Position numbers and translations under genes: made by a program. From NCBI GenBank assembly GCA_001662655.1, contig KV460246.1: a stretch of 64,000 bases of DNA; one strand, given 5' to 3'. Positions 6,331-24,135 of this stretch are shown piece by piece. Source of the stretch: Pseudogymnoascus verrucosus (Eukaryota). A model generated the notes under the pieces. It made no database searches and had not been told where the DNA came from. It saw only the letters and a list, made by a program, of their open reading frames with translations. The number at the start of each line of letters is the position of its first letter. The stretch's first letter is position 1.

Positions 6331-7371
6331 CAACCAACCCCCCCCCTCGAGACCGGCGGTCCCTCCCGCTCCCGCCACCACAGCAGCTCGGGCAACCTGA
6401 CCCTAGACATGCGCTACAAGCAGATGCACCTCAAGAACCCCCGTGCCCGACGCGAAGTGACGACGCGCAAGCAGGTCGGCGACGCGGAGAGCATGGTGAA
6501 CGAGGGCGAGTCCTCGGCGGGGCGGAGTGGTTTTTTTGGACGGGGGGGGGAGGTGTGAGAGCGCTGCTGGCGGGGAAGTGGGGGGGGATACTGGCGGCTT
6601 GTGCTTGTTTCTGTAGTCCCCTTCTTGTCCTGCTGCCGCTGCTGGAGTTGGTGTCGTGATGCGGTCGTGCTGGAATGAGCCGACGCGTCCGTTCCTCTCC
6701 CCCCTGAGAACAATAAATCTACTGGTGAGGGTGAAAATGGCGAGGGGGGTGTGTGCGTGTGTTTGCACATAAATGAAGAAATCTTCAAATGGAGACGAAA
6801 AAAATACAAAACCTTCTATTTCGAAGCGGTTTTACTAGCGATGGGGGATTGGTGGTGCATGCATCATAGGTGGAATGGGAAGGGATAGAATATACATTTT
6901 GCCACGAGGGGGGCATGATAAGGAGGAGGGACATTTCTTTGAGCGGCTATTTCATTGCTCACGAGGGCACGGTGGGTGTATGGCGCGTCAAGGCAGGTCG
7001 GGGGGGTTGGTTGTAACATATACGTGGGATCTCGTACGCCTGCGCCGTGGTTTTCTTTTTGCATAGCATTGGTTTCCTGGAAGGCGAGACCAGAGGAGGT
7101 GGTAGAGATGGGTGGGGTATTCGCCCCTGTTTGGAAGATTTGTTGGAGGGTAGAGAAATAAAGATCATGATTGTTTAAATATTTGGATTTGAGAAATGCA
7201 CGCGTTGTGATTTGTGACGTGCGTAAACGGGGGATGGATAGAGACTGAACTAATAAATGAATGAATATTTCCTTGTGTATCTCTCGCCCATCGGGCACGC
7301 CTACACTATAGTAATACCTTACAACGCCTCCCTCCCCACATACGTATATACACCCCTCCTCTTCCTCACAT

Positions 7372-9190
7372 CTACGCCTTATAAAGCGTATCCAAAAAAC
7401 CCCCCGCCAACTCCACCACAACACTCTTATTCGGCAAGCTCCCCGCAACCCCATAAAGCGCCGCACTATCCCCCCTCGCCTCCCCCTTCTTCCGTCCATT
7501 CACCCCCCTCTCGCGCTCCTTCTCGCGCTCCGCCTCCACCACCGCCTCGAGGTCGGTAATAAACTTCTGCCACACCTTTGCGACGGGTAGCGTGACGGCC
7601 ATGTGCACGGCGGGCGGGTTTTGGAGGGCGTTCAGGTGCCACCCCTTCCCGGACATGCCGTCGGCGATGTCGTAGATGTCGAGGGTGGAACTGCGCACTG
7701 CGACGACGCTGACGAGGGGCTCGCCTACGATTTGGAGGTCTGTGGAGAGGGAGGGGTTGGTGCGGACAGCCTCAGCGATGGAACGCGCGGCGCCAACAAT
7801 CTCGTGTGCCGAAGCGATGTAACCCGCCTCACCGACACGCATCAGACTAGCCCAGCACCCGGCAATCAAGGCACCGGGGCGGGATCCCGCCATGTTAGGG
7901 GAGGCGTAGACGCCGCCCGACCAGTCTGGCGCGATGAAGTACTGGTATGTGCGCAGCTTCGCGGAGCGGTAGAGGATGGTGCTGTTTCCCTTTGGCGCGA
8001 AGCCGTACTTGTGTGTGTCGCAGGAGATGGAAGTGACGCCGCGGAGGCGGAAGTCGAAGAGCGGTGCGGGGAAGCCGGCAGCGCCGAGGAAGGGGACGAG
8101 GAAGGAGCCGAGGCAGCAGTCGACGTGGAGGGGGATGCGGCGGGCGACGGCGAGCTTGGAGAGCGCGGAGATGTCGTCGATGATGCCGTGGGGGAAGTTG
8201 GGGGCGGAGCCGACGAGGAGGATCGTGTTGCCATTTATGAGGCGCGAGACGGCGGGGATGGAGACTTGGTAGGATGGCGCGGGGCAGGCGACGAGGTGGA
8301 CCTTGATTCCGAAGTAGTGGCCGGCTTTGTGGAACGCGGTGTGGCCAGTGTCTGGGAGGATCCTGTGAGGGACGTTAGTATGTGTGTTTGGATGGAGGGC
8401 GGGTGAGTGGGTGGCTTACATCTCGGGTTCAGTGACACCACGCTCAACGTAGGCTTTTTGTCTGGCGCTGAGGCAGGCCATAAGGATCGACTCGGTGCCT
8501 CCGCTTGTGGTGGCACCTGCGGCTCCGGGCGGCGCATTGAAGATCCCGAGGACCATTGCGACGATCTCGGCCTCCATCTTTCGGACGCCAGGGAACACAT
8601 CCGGGTGGATGGGGTTGGCGACGGTGAACTTTCCAAAGGCCTCCGTCTGCAGCTTGATCAGGTCGTCACCACCGTGGTACACAGCACCAGACACGTATCC
8701 GTCTTCCCACTTGGTATGATCCATATTCGCGAGGGTCTCCAGCTCCTTCTGCACTGTTTCGTCGGTCCAGCCCTCCTTTGGAAGGGTTAGGTGTCTCGTT
8801 ATGCCAGGTCCAGATTGTATAAGCTTCGCCTGCAGCTTTGTGATTGCCTCATTGACCTGTTTCTGCACCTGAGTGCGCACACCCGGCGCCCTCAGGAAGA
8901 GCCCATAGAGTGTCCGTCGGACCGAAACGTAGCCATCGATAGTCGAACCAGCGAACCCCCTACCCTTGAGCTTCAAGTATGCCTTCTTCGTCCACCTCCA
9001 CAGGAATAGGAAGAAAATGATATTGCGCAGCCTAAACTAAAGCGTTAGTATCGGAATCGTAGCTCCACGCGAGTTATCACCGAGGCACTTACAGGTCGAT
9101 GTTCAGCGAGAGCAGCTGGGTACCCGAGCCGCCGGCCCTCGCCGCAATAGTGTTGCGCAAGCTGATAGGCATCCTCGAAGTCCCCGGCAT
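7372..9190 (-). CDS. DPL1: Sphingosine-1-phosphate (sphinganine-1-phosphate) lyase, PLP-dependent, 3 exons
   Basis: VSGAVYHGG, ANPIHPDVFPGVRKMEAEIVAM, TTSGGTESILMA, HVDCCLGSF, SCDTHKYGFAPKG (PLP lysine), AGSRPGALIAGCWA. Confidence 0.92.
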
Positions 9191-10193
9191 GGTGATATTT
9201 GAACAATTGAAGCTTCACTTCACAGTTCGTTGATGGAGGGTGCGACGTTCGAGAGATGCTGGGGCGGCGATACAGCGACCGACCTCCACTTTACGTCGGA
9301 GCTCGGCTTGTGGCTTGTGAAAGGGAGTGGGGAACGTCGCAACAGCACACTTGGGTTACTCCGGCCGACGTAACCTGAGGAGTAAGGTTGCGATTCTTGG
9401 CCAGATTGGGATGGCTTCGGTTCAGGGAGTACGAAGTACGAAGAGAGTAAAAAAAAGGCGATGGAGCATAAAACCCACTACAAAACATTTCATCGCACCA
9501 CTTTACTCAAACTCTATCTCTATCTGAACGTTCACAGAACATTAGCTATGCATAATACGGATATTTGCACGCAAATTACGCCTAAAACTCCAATATCAAA
9601 GGCTAGATATGCCGCCAAACTGGCTGGTGAACGAGTACCAGCGGTCTCTACTGCACCCAGCCGTGTGCAAATATACGATGGTAGGCCGGGTCGAGTCAAA
9701 ACCTTGGCCTCAAGACACCTTGTCTTCCAGATCCAAACCCCGGGCAATTTGAATCTCAGACGGACGAAAGGATAGCTTCCTTTCTAACTATCCTTTTATC
9801 CAAAACAATGGTTTGGCTTGGGGCAACAAGGACTTCACGATAGTTGGCCATGCCCAGACATACCGGTACGAGTAAGTTCTACGAAGAAAACCTAACTTCG
9901 TCGTTTCCAAGCTTCATCTATTTCCTTATTGGCGATGTTGGCAAAACACAAGGGGGACTAAACCCGCTCTGTTTCCACCTTTCCTCTTCAGCCTTGTCCT
10001 AAACGCCACTTTTCGCGGGGAGTCGGCCAACCAACGTCACTCATAAATGTCCAGTCCATCTTTTTACGTCATTACTATATTCAGTACCTCCGCGAGATGA
10101 TCTGTTTCTTTCTAACTTGAGTCTCCAATTCTTTTACTTATTTTTATTCCTCCCTTCACAATACTCTATCCCTCTTGCCCTACGCCTTCCATC

Positions 10194-11426
10194 ATGGCGT
10201 CTGTGATTCAACTGGAGAGTCATGTCAATAATCACGCGTGGGGGAAGAAGGGACAGTCGTCCCTAGCCGCCCGGTATGCGGATGCCACACCGGGCAAGGA
10301 GTTCAAGGTAGAGTCGGGCAAAGATTACTCGGAGATGTGGATAGGCACAAATCCAAACAATGCATCACACATCCTGTCAACTGGACAGAAGCTCCAAGAA
10401 TGGATCGACGGCAACAAAGAGAAGCTGCTCGGGCCGGCTGTCATTGAGAAGTACGGTTCGGACCTGCCATTCCTACCAAAGGTCATCTCAATTTCGAACG
10501 AACTCCCCCTCCAAATACACCCGGACAAGGAGCTCGCGACCAAGCTCCACAAGCACAACCCTTCGAAATTCGGAGACCCAAATCACAAACCCGAGCTTAC
10601 AGTAGCTCTGACCGACTTCGAGGCCTTCGTTGGCTTCAAGCATGTTGATGATATCGAAGCTCTCTTCACCGACATACCCTTTCTCAGGGACCGATTCACC
10701 ACCCAGCCGAAAACACCCTTCACCAGCTCAACCCTCGTCAAAAACATCGTCCACAAGCTGCTCTCGCTCTCGGAGGAAGAAGTCGCCGAAGTATACTCCG
10801 CGCTCCGCGATGCCCCGCGCTCCGAATACGGCGACCAGAGCTACATCCTGATGCTCCTCCCCCGCATCGCCAACCAGGACGGCGCCACCGACCCCGGCTG
10901 CCTCGTCTCGCTCCTTACCATGAACTTCCTCACCCTCAAGAAGGGCGAGGCGCTCTACATCCCCGCGGACGGCATCCATGCCTTCCTCTCCGGCGACATC
11001 ATCGAGTGCATGGCGCCCTCGGACAACGTGATAAACTGCGGTGTCTGCCCAAGCGCAAACCCGGAATCGATCAACCTCTTCACCTCGGCGCTGACGTTCG
11101 ACTACAAGGACCCGCAGTCGATGGTGATGAAGCCGAAGGTGAGCACGAAGGGACTGAAGGGGCATACGAGGGTATATGCGCCGGAGGGTAGCGAGTTTGA
11201 TATGCTGGTTACGGAGTTGAAGAGCGGGGAGGAGGAGCATATTGCGGGCTTGCAGGGCCCGGGCATTGTGGTTGTGACGAAGGGGGAGGGGAAGCTACAT
11301 GCCAAGGACGTGGATTTGGAGTTGAAGGAGGGCTATGCGTTTTTCGTTGGATATGATACCGATCTTAAGCTGGTGGCGAATGGGGGCGAGGGGCTTGATA
11401 TTCACATGTCGTTTTGCGAGGCGTAA
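10194..11426 (+). CDS. Type I mannose-6-phosphate isomerase-like protein (divergent paralogue), intronless
   Basis: 410-aa ORF with WGK, EMWIGT, LPFLPKV, LQIHPDK, DPNHKPEL, HAFLSGDIIECMAxSDN; Zn ligands Q/H/E/H present. Confidence 0.85.
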   Translation: MASVIQLESHVNNHAWGKKGQSSLAARYADATPGKEFKVESGKDYSEMWIGTNPNNASHILSTGQKLQEWIDGNKEKLLGPAVIEKYGSDLPFLPKVISISNELPLQIHPDKELATKLHKHNPSKFGDPNHKPELTVALTDFEAFVGFKHVDDIEALFTDIPFLRDRFTTQPKTPFTSSTLVKNIVHKLLSLSEEEVAEVYSALRDAPRSEYGDQSYILMLLPRIANQDGATDPGCLVSLLTMNFLTLKKGEALYIPADGIHAFLSGDIIECMAPSDNVINCGVCPSANPESINLFTSALTFDYKDPQSMVMKPKVSTKGLKGHTRVYAPEGSEFDMLVTELKSGEEEHIAGLQGPGIVVVTKGEGKLHAKDVDLELKEGYAFFVGYDTDLKLVANGGEGLDIHMSFCEA

Positions 11427-20905: not shown

Positions 20906-21514
20906 TCCGACTTTCTATAAAAGTCTTACGACAGTGAGAAAAGTGCAGTCGGCGTGGATGCTACTATAATCGTCATACATAGTGACAAAGATATTGAATA
21001 AATATATGGTCCATTCTCCTGCTGTGGCCGTAATATCTTATAGATCCGCCCAGGGCCCAAATTAAGGCGGGGTAAGATCCAATAACAGGCTAAGGATCGG
21101 TGATCGCTTGTCCACACGCTGGAGACTGACAAGCCCACGTGCACTGATAGGCCGTGGCTGCCCGGGCCGTACCGCTCAGTCCCCCGAAACGCCAAAAATA
21201 TTCCGAACGAACAGGAGGGGCAAGAAGGCGGGGGGGCTATGATGGCAAACTTCATCTCCACAGTGGATATCCCGGATTTTGTCCATCTCGGGATAGTAGG
21301 GGCTCTACGATATACTTATACTTTCTAGAAGTTTGAGGAGTGATTTCTGCAGGTATGGATCCATATAGAGGTCGATGGAGGTGATTAAATCATAGCCCTC
21401 ATTGACGATGAGGGGAGTTTTATGTCGGCAAAAATTTATCAACCACCGACGGCCTTATCGATAAGCTGGCTAATCTGAACTATGGCCTGCTATTTCGGGT
21501 ATAGCAGGGCATAA

Positions 21515-21609
21515 GAAGAGATGGCAGTCTTCTTATGGGAAGAATACGACGTCCTCGTGTCATCGTCTAGCATCAACAGGGCACTCAGGTCAATTAATTA
21601 GTCGTAAAG
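21515..21609 (+). mobile_element. Degenerate Tc1/IS630-like DNA transposase fragment
   Basis: Translates EEMAVFLWEEYDVLVSSSSINRALRSIN*S*, matching the fungal Tc1-like HTH motif EMxxFLWDEFxxxVSxSSISRALxxxGWSKK; a stop (TAG) sits at the expected Trp. Confidence 0.7.
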
Positions 21610-21645
21610 CTAACTTGTATATTTGGGGATCGTGTTACTACTTGA

Positions 21646-22306
21646 CTACCACTCAGACTTGATATCGAATGCCATTTCCCACTCAGCATGCACTACAGAA
21701 TCATCATCGGCAAATTTATGTCTCGAGGTGTAGCTTCCACGAGAGAGCATCCCGGAAGGGGCTTCTTCCCATCCATGGCCTTAGGGAAATTAGTCTTTAA
21801 CCTTAATCTCAGAATCGCGATACAGCACTTACGGGGAAAAGTAACCTCGTGTAGCTTAGACTGTGGCGCAAACGAACCCTGTTGGTTTCGTTATAAGCTC
21901 CTCTATTCAATAGCCATCATAATGCTGTAACTTACCAGCATCTGCTGGTCCTTCGCGACACGTAATCCTTTTCTGAAAGTCGAGGTTTGGCTTGTAAGAC
22001 CAGAGATAATGTCATGTTGCACTCTGAATGTTACCCTGATCTTATAGTGGCAGCCCTCTTTGAGTATATAAGGGCTCTTAGCCGCCTTCTCTATCTCCTC
22101 AGGCGACGTAAGGGGATACACGATGTCCCCTCCAGGTCGGTTCTCGAAGATAATCCTGACTTCTTCAAGGATCATCCTAGGGCTAGGTGTAGGTGCTTCT
22201 ATAATAATTGTGATCAGAACTGTAGCCAGAGGGCAAGGAATATAGATTTGTAGCAGGGAGATATCGTAGATATCTTGACAGCCATTGACTTACCACTTTC
22301 TGCCAT
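21646..22306 (-). CDS. Rho GDP-dissociation inhibitor-like protein, Ig domain only (~151 aa), 4 exons
   Basis: Exons 22306-22294, 22198(or 22219)-21936, 21878-21833, 21779-21646 splice in frame. Motifs LKEGCHYKIRVTFRVQHDIISGL, RKGLRV, MLGSFAP, EEAPSGMLSRGSY, FADDD, FDIKSEW*. Confidence 0.88.
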
Positions 22307-24135
22307 GGCTTAAGGAATAGTTGTATGTATAGGCTGTGTTGGAGTTGAAAGCTATAAAAGGAGCAGCAAGGAGACCTTGAACTTGAATAAGAGCAGAATG
22401 AAACCACAGAAGATTCGACTGTAGCGTTAATCGACACTACAGCACAAATCAAGAGAGGTATGGTCTATATATGCTTATAGACGCTACCCCTCCTTTGTCC
22501 AGATACCTCTGACACCGACAAAGATCCAGACCTCCATTCTTTTGCATTGTGTGACATGCCGAGGGCATTACTGACAAGGAAATGATGAGCATCATGTCCA
22601 ATCGGAAAATCGTAAATGTGCCGGCAACGACTCAGGACGTGCAGTAAAAGAAAGCGCCGTATCCTCAGCTACGAAAGACTGGCAGTCACGTTGTGAAACA
22701 TCTGCTGTGCATCACAATGCAGGCAGTGAGGGGAGAGGCGGTGTGGTTATGCAAAATGACCGTCGACAAGGGCAATACAAATAATTAGGTGAAGCTTTGT
22801 CCGTAGCCATTATATTGAAGGAATTTAAATTCATTCTGCTACTTATACATCCCCGTATGAAGTAGTGTCGTTTGGCTTCACTTAATAGATTTAGCTAGCG
22901 GAAGTGATAAGCATTGAAGCGATAAGGCCACAAATGAGGGATCGGGTCGTCCTGCGTCGATCGACGTGGTGGTTCTGATACCTATTGTCCACTAACGCGC
23001 TATTTATGCTGAGTGTTTAGACATGTAAGTATATTGGGTTAGATGGGCCGGGAACCCTAGTTAAGAGCAAGGTAGAAGTTCCAGTCACCACACACGAAAG
23101 AAAAGGTGGTTTTGCCCACAACTGTATGCCGTGCTGTAAGTACAGTACGAATAGGCTTAGCATGCCATTGTAATACATATCTGGAGCCTTCGAAAGAGGC
23201 ACTTGATGATTGAGATGGCCAGGTACTGCGCTTAGCCGCATTTGGACAGTAGTCCGAGAACCCGTGGTCGGCAGGAAGTTAAAAAATTTAGGGCAGGGGA
23301 AGCCAGCCGTGCAAACAGCTGTACTAGGCCGCCACACACAACCACAGCTCAACAGCCACCTTTTATTGCCAAGGGATCCCAACTTTGGAGGTATCAACTC
23401 ATATGGTAATGTCGCATGACACAGCACTCCCTAGTCCCCACAAGGCTGAAAATTATTTTTCAGCGTCATAGTGAGGCTCGGAAACCCAGATCAAAGTGTT
23501 AAATGAGTTGGAAAGGCGTAATGAGCTTGTGGTGATGCTGTAGGTCAAGGGGTTCTATCATACTACGAATTGACGCCCTCCGCAATCAGGCGCGACGGCG
23601 ACGACGTGATAGTAAATCTCAGAGTAGCTGGAGTTTGGACTGCTCAGGAGTGATCACACAACATAATTAATATAAAATACTGGAATTTTCAATGGGTTCA
23701 CAAATTTAGAATCAATTAAATTCAAAGTACCAATATTTGTCGCAGGGATGCACACATTATATTTGCAACTAATATTATCGCTCCCTCCAACTTAATTATT
23801 TAGTAACAACAAGTAATGGAAAAAAAATAGTTCCTAAAGAACTAAGAATCCATATTTAATTTATAGTTGCTATGAAAAAATTAAGAAACAGTAGGGTTTA
23901 TAAGCCACTTTGAGCCCCTATGGTGGTTGCATATAGAGTCCTATCCCTAATTATCTGGGTGCACGAGATAACTCAGTTGCTTTCAAATTTAGTCATCTAC
24001 CGACGAAGTGGACTCAACAACAAGCGCTCTGTTTCCTAGCATATTTCTAAGGTATCTAAATCGTAGCGCCCTTTCATGGTTGTTGAAACTACAATTGGTC
24101 TTAGTAGTTATCATGCCGCATTCACACCAGCGTCT

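Follow-up and report, generated by a model that had tools for sequence, protein, structure and literature searches.

Within a 64,000-nucleotide stretch of contig KV460246.1 (assembly GCA_001662655.1) of Pseudogymnoascus verrucosus, hereafter the window, the minus strand of positions 21646-22306 carries an intact four-exon gene for the immunoglobulin (Ig)-like, geranylgeranyl-binding domain of a Rho GDP-dissociation inhibitor (RhoGDI), devoid of the N-terminal arm that binds the switch regions of the GTPase. Pseudogymnoascus is a soil-dwelling, cold-loving ascomycete. RhoGDIs are regarded as eukaryote-specific and as working only together with prenylated Rho GTPases. Taking the evidence as a whole, we consider it fairly probable that the gene is of eumycetozoan type, was acquired horizontally, and encodes a protein that likely binds prenyl or isoprenoid tails. 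A few ascomycetes would then keep, as a stand-alone protein, the half of a slime-mould-type RhoGDI that binds lipid, with its nearest kin in about 4% of the sampled Streptomycetaceae genomes.

A RhoGDI Ig domain without its arm

As read from the sequence and spliced by coordinates, the four exons join into 453 nt that encode a protein of 151 residues, starting with MAESEAPTPSPRMILEEV and ending in FDIKSEW; an earlier first-pass annotation of the locus had proposed an intact four-exon gene of about this length, and splicing returns the same protein. When compared with the Pfam Rho_GDI profile (PF02115, 193 positions, gathering score 26.5 bits), exon 2 matches positions 58-138 (E 6e-17, 62.2 bits) and exon 4 positions 155-192 (E 2e-12, 47.6 bits), and in the PDB exon 2 finds Ig-domain chains of human RhoGDI at E ~1e-9. 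Annotated orthologues are present in Pseudogymnoascus sp. VKM F-103 (V499_01331, P0003; 150 aa, 95% identity over 148 aligned columns and 93% against exon 2 alone) and in Oidiodendron maius (OIDMADRAFT_136160, P0005; 140 aa, 69% identical to P0003), the latter with all family motifs kept. P0003 begins with MAESEAP like the window protein and agrees with it in the residues at the junctions, its open reading frame (ORF) and all of its splice sites are intact, and both annotations, which were made independently, carry the same exon junctions as the window gene.

The profile match of P0003 (131.9 bits, E 3e-38) begins at position 56 and that of P0005 at position 64, compared with positions 3-7 in full-length relatives (P0007, P0016, P0052). 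Similarity to these relatives starts at APTPSPR, which aligns with APKDDPRR in the linker directly after the arm, and intron 1 falls on the boundary where their arm meets the Ig domain. With eight full-length relatives and the short P0003 as tblastn queries, no arm-like exon was found in the 64-kb window, all matches outside the gene having E-values of at least 0.097. The window protein carries the family profile and, judged by a model of P0003, the Ig-like fold of the RhoGDIs without their N-terminal regulatory arm, much as the first-pass annotation had recognized.

A second partial copy is annotated in VKM F-103 (V499_08915, P0114; 156 aa). It covers only Pfam positions 107-191, continues into an unrelated C-terminal tail and groups with the Oidiodendron protein, not with the orthologue of the window gene. 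There are thus two old paralogues, one of which may be decaying or mis-annotated.

Amoebozoan and bacterial relatives

With P0003 as the query, a word-limited search of 5.8 billion proteins collected 86 proteins at E 0.001 among 97 candidates. An exhaustive search of 1.84 billion representative proteins collected 885, the best 150 of which were listed and 20 of those named. After the Leotiomycete copies, the best matches are JGI metagenome proteins, full-length at ~196 aa and with 60-65% identity; further relatives are found in Physarum polycephalum (62%), Acanthamoeba (53%), Guillardia (52%), Kitasatospora (47-48%) and Mucoromycota (45-48%), and cluster look-ups add the EukProt Amoebozoa Ceratiomyxa, Clastostelium, Vermistella, Cochliopodium and Nematostelium. 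No ascomycete Rdi1 is present among the 86 proteins of the word-limited search, and in the exhaustive one the Pezizomycotina Rdi1 representatives reach no more than 38-41% identity (Diaporthe P0133, E 3e-22; Neurospora P0195, E 8e-19). Canonical Rdi1 is itself strongly conserved in Pezizomycotina, with 67-99% identity across the best 120 of 1350 matching proteins, and no Pseudogymnoascus protein is found among these best 120.

The same division is seen in the motifs. Where the canonical Rdi1 of Diaporthe reads MIGSYAPNTDKQRLYTKKFNEEEAPSG, Physarum reads MLGSFGPQVKPHEVTFPRNGWEEAPSG and DRPEGDIVYTL; the window protein, with GSFAPQSKLHEVTFPRHGWEEAPSG, has the amoebozoan form and not the Pezizomycotina signature GSYAPNT...KKF..EEAPSG, and it has the motifs PRHGWEEAPSG and RPxGDIVY in common with the Physarum transcript (P0016). 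The first-pass annotation had drawn this contrast and had called the protein amoebozoan rather than fungal; the Diaporthe-Physarum alignment, the identities and the trees described below all agree with it. The full-length RhoGDIs of Eumycetozoa and other Amoebozoa are the nearest relatives of the Ig domain, but they comprise 195-206 residues and have the arm. A stand-alone Ig domain without an arm, like that of the window, is found in Dictyostelium purpureum (DICPUDRAFT_91251, P0183; 134 aa), and an arm-less dictyostelid RhoGDI is the nearest known analogue of the window protein. GDI2 of Dictyostelium discoideum is likewise held to be arm-less, and functionally silent.

We built four trees, all on the Ig domain: a FastTree phylogeny of 217 rows, including every fetched protein of 125-320 aa and only 8 of the canonical Rdi1 matches collected later; an 88-row IQ-TREE phylogeny (LG+C20 with posterior mean site frequencies) of hand-picked sequences over 148 columns, with P0183 and P0114 left out; a 58-row tree to which these two were added; and a 65-row tree from which P0183 was again omitted and to which 8 bacterial ORFs were added. 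In the 88- and 65-row trees, the window protein, P0003 and P0005 form a clade at 100/98 (in the latter together with P0114), whose sister is a group of Penicillium and Streptomycetaceae proteins (98/87 and 97/70, respectively). The union of the two is recovered at 97/90 and 98/90, and lies within a group that also contains Physarum and the metagenome proteins akin to it (98/97 and 96/93). The group of Ceratiomyxa and Clastostelium is the next to join in the 88-row tree (98/95), a join that is not resolved in the 65-row tree. Rows of Acanthamoeba, Vermistella, Cochliopodium and Nematostelium also neighbour the clade, and the lineages that were looked up, three of these six genera and Physarum, are Amoebozoa. 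Canonical ascomycete Rdi1 (100/96) falls on the other side, together with Mucoromycota and metazoa, and in each of the 88-, 58- and 65-row trees the window protein nests in a Physarum-containing clade and lies outside that of fungal Rdi1. Within the Leotiomycetes, the 65-row tree separates two paralogous lineages, window/P0003 and Oidiodendron/P0114, at 95/96. The D. purpureum protein falls into the same 14-row group as the window protein in the FastTree phylogeny, and in the 58-row tree its branch (length 2.2) attaches in the Physarum-like region; it is very divergent, and its placement is not resolved under the mixture model.

Of four approximately unbiased (AU) tests, three reject the union with fungal Rdi1. 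Nesting in ascomycete Rdi1, which had been named beforehand as the outcome that would speak against the first-pass reading, was rejected when the short Leotiomycete proteins were joined with 8 Dikarya Rdi1 rows (p 0.0099). Rejected as well were the union of these proteins with canonical fungal Rdi1 as represented by 5 rows of the 65-row set (p 0.029) and that of fungal Rdi1 with all 21 rows of the arm-less clade (p 0.004), although some of the groups compared were defined after the trees had been seen.

Arm-less or arm-reduced kin in Streptomycetaceae and Penicillium are new and were not expected; the first-pass annotation had missed them. Rho_GDI-domain ORFs above the Pfam cut-off occur in 17 of 401 sampled Streptomycetaceae genomes (~4%; 18 at E <= 0.001) and in none of 14 control genomes, and the contigs that carry them, 66 kb to 8 Mb long, are genuinely bacterial. 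The proteins of this sister clade (e.g., Kitasatospora P0074, Streptomyces P0097, P0100 and P0101, and Penicillium P0148) are short, with 141-183 residues, and have an HGWEEAPSG-type motif; compared with the window protein, they are only 44-50% identical and have no introns. The Penicillium member, N7451_000708 of Penicillium sp. IBT 35674x (P0148, 141 aa, on a 4.6-Mb contig), is another arm-less RhoGDI-like protein of an ascomycete and branches off, on a long stem, basal to the bacterial proteins (98/87 in the 88-row and 97/70 in the 65-row tree). In P0100 (Streptomyces sp. SBC-4, 183 aa), in contrast to the other members, some of the arm survives: the Pfam match begins at position 31, and what is left of the second arm helix, LQKYKEEMG, aligns with LRKYKESLLG. 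The common ancestor therefore probably had an arm, which was lost more than once, so that arm-lessness is a poor argument for a single transfer. Such bacteria are not known to have Rho GTPases, which suggests that the conserved job of the clade, if there is one, is independent of Rho.

Two subfamilies can be distinguished among the bacterial proteins, one of the HGWEEAPSG type, near the eukaryotic sequences, and a very divergent one of the LGDFRHGGPYE..LPPERVPSG type, which nests within the former in the tree on a stem of length 1.9. At the Streptomycetaceae loci collected from genomes G001-G397 (L001-L003, L017-L023, L027), no match begins before profile position 43. No conserved partner gene was found around the bacterial copies L001 and L003, which are surrounded by unrelated enzymes and insertion sequence (IS) transposases; at L003, genes for IS4/IS5-type transposases at 7365-8273 (plus strand) and 9713-10453 (minus strand) lie 1-4 kb from the Kitasatospora RhoGDI-like gene.

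A metagenome scan yielded 13 loci from 29 pattern matches, all of them relatives at 44-59% identity. Among them, protist contigs (L008, and also L007, L009 and L010) carry a distantly related full-length RhoGDI gene in which one intron, of phase 1, separates the arm from the Ig domain and another, of phase 0, falls just before MLGSF. Both introns of L008 have the phases of introns 1 and 2 of the window gene and lie two codons off them; the positions are not identical, so that inherited introns, or exon loss as the route by which the arm was lost, are at most suggested by the sequences. A RhoGDI-like protein of 196 aa on a 203-kb IMG contig (P0090) contains an internal duplication of PRHG(R/W)(K/E)E(A/V)PSG and matches the Pfam profile in two stretches.

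Function and origin

The AlphaFold model of P0003, used here in place of the window protein itself, has a predicted local distance difference test (pLDDT) score of 81 and superimposes on RhoGDI Ig domains (36-38% identity to the human structures) with a template modelling (TM) score, normalised to the target, of 0.87-0.90 and a root-mean-square deviation of 1.6-2.0 Å over 141 columns. The window protein has the same Ig-like β-sandwich as the canonical RhoGDIs (human GDI1/ARHGDIA, fungal Rdi1) and differs from them in the absence of the N-terminal arm of ~55 residues, which is responsible for switch I/II binding and GDI activity, as well as in its position outside the Rdi1 clade. According to two reports (PMC8622166; PMC8253491), the arm, a helix-loop-helix with residues including Asp45 and Leu55/56 in human GDI1 (PMC8622166), binds switch I/II, where Asp45 bonds to Thr35 of the GTPase and stabilises GDP, and the Ig domain takes up the geranylgeranyl group, with Tyr110, Gln130, Asp140, Tyr144 and Glu163/Glu164 holding the polybasic tail. 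The equivalents of Tyr110, Glu163/Glu164, Asp183-185 (DDD) and Trp192 are kept in the window protein, and the retained residues would be those that dock the prenylated polybasic tail in human GDI1.

Without an arm there would be no clamp on switch I/II and hence no inhibition of GDP release or of GTP hydrolysis; judged by its sequence, the window protein cannot be a GDP-dissociation inhibitor. It would most likely act in the cytosol instead, binding isoprenoid or prenyl tails with low affinity and irrespective of the nucleotide state of the GTPase, in the manner of PDE-delta (PDE6D). PDE-delta and UNC119 are arm-less β-sandwiches of the same fold class that shelter prenyl or acyl tails (Foldseek TM 0.5-0.6); at an identity of only 9-15% they fall outside the RhoGDI family, and no counterpart of their cargo release by Arl2/3 is known for the window protein. 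By this analogy, it is plausible that the protein binds prenyl groups or other lipids, and we infer ligand, partners and physiological role of the window protein from such comparisons. In the biology of the fungus, this could amount to an extra layer in the handling of Rho/Cdc42 in Pseudogymnoascus and Oidiodendron. The engineered human GDI1 ΔN58 (crystal forms, e.g., 1RHO and 1FSO), whose boundaries are essentially those of the window protein, calls for caution about a Rho chaperone role: in one report (PMC8622166), the truncated GDI1 loses RAC1 binding entirely in vitro, as well as membrane extraction, so that an arm-less domain may not hold Rho GTPases at all.

Regarding origin, horizontal transfer is well supported and the most likely reading of the sequences; far less probable is an ancient paralogue that was lost on a massive scale. 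A eumycetozoan-type, Physarum-like RhoGDI would have entered an ancestor of the Leotiomycetes and acquired a host-like composition and fungal-type introns afterwards. The GC content of the gene (0.49) and that of its third codon positions (0.51, as against 0.50-0.67 in neighbouring genes) show no anomaly relative to its neighbours, as expected for an old transfer, and are thus uninformative either way; together with the ordinary fungal genes on both sides, this composition does argue that the gene is no contamination, and the two paralogous Leotiomycete lineages imply that it has long been resident. The horizontal copy proposed in the first-pass annotation accordingly holds in its origin and amoebozoan-like position, as seen in trees and AU tests; the other proposals made there, a second copy, a prenyl chaperone role and an accessory region, stand as candidates. 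Since Streptomycetaceae and Penicillium proteins are present in the closest clade, amoeba to fungus is only one of several possible paths: the topology allows a passage from slime mould to fungus to bacterium, and also one from slime mould to bacterium to fungus, or parallel transfers from an unsampled donor.

Several observations weigh against an acquired, functional prenyl binder. Only 148 columns are available for phylogeny, and most of the nearest relatives are metagenome proteins. In the 58-row tree, resolution near the Physarum-like group collapses and the local forks, the fungal-bacterial sisterhood among them, fall below 80, and the union of the short Leotiomycete proteins with all 14 canonical fungal rows is not rejected at 0.05 (AU p 0.074). 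Among the tail-holding residues, Gln130, Asp140 and Tyr144 are replaced by T, A and Q in the window protein; the full-length amoebozoan kin also differ at these three positions. The loss of RAC1 binding in human ΔN58 counts here as well. In the gene, 15 substitutions separate the window from a ~97%-identical relative (X4), 10 of them nonsynonymous and 5 synonymous (omega ~0.55), and its exons (15 differences in 453 nt) are not better conserved than introns (4/205) or upstream DNA (18/694), so that recent constraint on the gene looks weak. Transcription, finally, is backed by a single contig of low depth, and that its run is RNA is a guess.

That contig comes from X3, one of four runs (X1-X4) aligned to the locus, which derives from a related strain and is labelled 'RNA?' by software. 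Its two contigs of 151 nt cover exon sequence and 22 nt of 3' flank and no intron. One of them covers 21935-22070 and is preceded by 15 loose letters that equal 21863-21877, the end of exon 3, and that carry three variants (21863, 21864, 21868) found also in a DNA-like contig of X4; the contig thus joins 21878 to 21936, with intron 2 removed as predicted. We take this as a hint, not as proof, that the gene is transcribed and correctly spliced in the related strain. Runs X1 and X2 cover only DNA 3' of the gene, X1 reaching 21679 in exon 4. The X4 locus is collinear with the window from 21413 to 23000, and the ten amino acid changes in its allele include H109Y, in the HGWEE motif, and F106I.

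Four other explanations have to be set against this reading. The gene may have come by way of a Streptomycetaceae bacterium that was itself the recipient of a slime-mould-like eukaryotic gene, with the three introns gained later, a path that we judge unlikely. The well-supported sisterhood of the Leotiomycete and Streptomycetaceae-Penicillium proteins in the 88- and 65-row trees, the presence of the domain in Streptomycetaceae on genuine bacterial contigs and in none of the controls, and the shared soil habitat of these fungi and bacteria, a matter of general knowledge, speak for it. Yet the fungal sequences do not nest among the bacterial ones but form their sister group, the sisterhood itself dissolves in the 58-row tree, and the order (Leotiomycetes, (Penicillium, bacteria)) fits a transfer from fungus to bacterium just as well; moreover, the fungal proteins are closer to Physarum-like than to bacterial ones (60-65% against 44-50%), and three spliceosomal introns are crowded into 453 nt. 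Vertical descent, either from an ancient fungal paralogue or from a fast-evolving Rdi1 duplicate that was widely lost, would make the amoebozoan likeness ancestral or an artefact. It draws on the unrejected union with the 14 canonical rows, on the host-like composition and fungal-type introns, and on the long residence implied by the two Leotiomycete lineages, and we nonetheless regard it as quite improbable: the proteins nest, with starred support in the 88- and 65-row trees, in a clade containing Physarum, Ceratiomyxa and Clastostelium, the remaining three AU tests reject the union, the only fungi with members of the clade among the matches listed or named are Pseudogymnoascus, Oidiodendron and one Penicillium, and Rdi1 proper is strongly conserved across the best-matching Pezizomycotina proteins.

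An acquired half-domain might also be a decaying or near-neutral passenger, open by chance and without present function, in which case the gene would be an evolutionary curiosity only. The few substitutions between window and X4, which we judge compatible with neutrality, the exons that are no better conserved than their flanks, the reduced P0114 and the unbound RAC1 of human ΔN58 all fit this possibility; the intact frames and splice sites in both the window and VKM F-103, an X4 allele whose sole coding-exon indel is an in-frame deletion of 3 nt at 22081 (KAAK to KAK, as in VKM F-103), an Oidiodendron copy that keeps every family motif at 69% identity, the confident fold of the P0003 model and the spliced X3 contig speak against it, and overall we give it a small chance. 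Smallest by far is the probability that an ordinary full-length RhoGDI has had its arm exon or exons overlooked. The 5' end of the transcript is unmapped and exon 1 has only 13 coding nucleotides, but the eight full-length queries reveal no arm-like ORF in 64 kb, an in-frame TAA stands two codons 5' of the ATG, the annotated orthologues have 150 and 140 residues, and kin in intron-free bacterial genomes are also short, with Pfam starts at 56-70, except for P0100 at 31.

Horizontal acquisition of a slime-mould-type Ig domain remains, then, the reading we prefer. A more far-reaching version, in which a slime-mould RhoGDI entered both Pezizomycotina and Streptomycetaceae, lost its arm repeatedly and left an Ig domain with a Rho-independent job that the fungal copy has in common, is a tentative idea and on balance rather doubtful. 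If a slime-mould gene did cross kingdom and domain boundaries, its persistence in bacteria without Rho GTPases would mean that the Ig domain has a job independent of Rho, e.g., the binding of isoprenoids or other lipids. If confirmed, the transfers would show cleanly that a domain of eukaryotic signalling has moved among Amoebozoa, fungi and bacteria, and would offer a natural experiment on what an arm-less RhoGDI Ig domain can do, including whether it acts on lipid ligands other than GTPases. In a literature search that covered sources outside subscription journals, we came across no account of a RhoGDI passed to fungi or actinobacteria, or of this gene.

Gene structure and neighbourhood

The coordinates of the gene and of the elements next to it are collected in the table below. 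The TATA-like element and CT-rich leader noted in the first-pass annotation are present upstream of the ATG. The transposon relic that it placed beside the gene stands as a suggestion: in the assembly of the relative X4, positions 21414-21470 have a depth of 72 against 16 (~4.5-fold), which suggests a dispersed repeat relic, and short ORFs within 21412-21601 look like the N-terminal helix-turn-helix of a transposase, in a match below the Pfam cut-off.

Features of the RhoGDI-like locus in window coordinates
Feature	Position	Strand	Description
Putative promoter/leader	22340..22478	-	TATAAG/ATATATAG at 22478-22463; CT-rich at ~22410-22340; from sequence reading only
Exon 1	22294..22306	-	ATG + 10 nt: MAES and first base of Glu5
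Intron 1	22199..22293	-	95 nt, GTAAGT...TAG, phase 1
Exon 2	21936..22198	-	Residues 5-92, first half of the Ig-like domain; motifs RPGGDIVYPL, LKEGCHYKIRVTFRVQHDIISGL, RKGLRV
Intron 2	21879..21935	-	57 nt, GTAAGT...CAG, phase 0
Exon 3	21833..21878	-	GSFAPQSKLHEVTFP and first base of an Arg codon
Intron 3	21780..21832	-	53 nt, GTAAGT...AAG, phase 1
Exon 4 and stop	21646..21779	-	Coding 21779-21649: (R)HGWEEAPSGMLSRGSY...DDD...FDIKSEW; TAG at 21648-21646
Transposase-like relic/repeat (neighbour, not part of the gene)	21412..21601	+	3' of the stop; HTH_33 at 21515-21601, E 0.07, below cut-off

The genes flanking the locus are ordinary fungal ones. Between 14900 and 32350, the window resembles a carbohydrate-use neighbourhood, with an AA9 lytic polysaccharide monooxygenase, a GH3 β-glucosidase with PA14, a sugar transporter and a Zn2Cys6 regulator; the same stretch encodes an AMP-binding acyl-CoA ligase, an NmrA-like protein and a dehydrogenase of the 3-hydroxyisobutyrate-dehydrogenase-like type.

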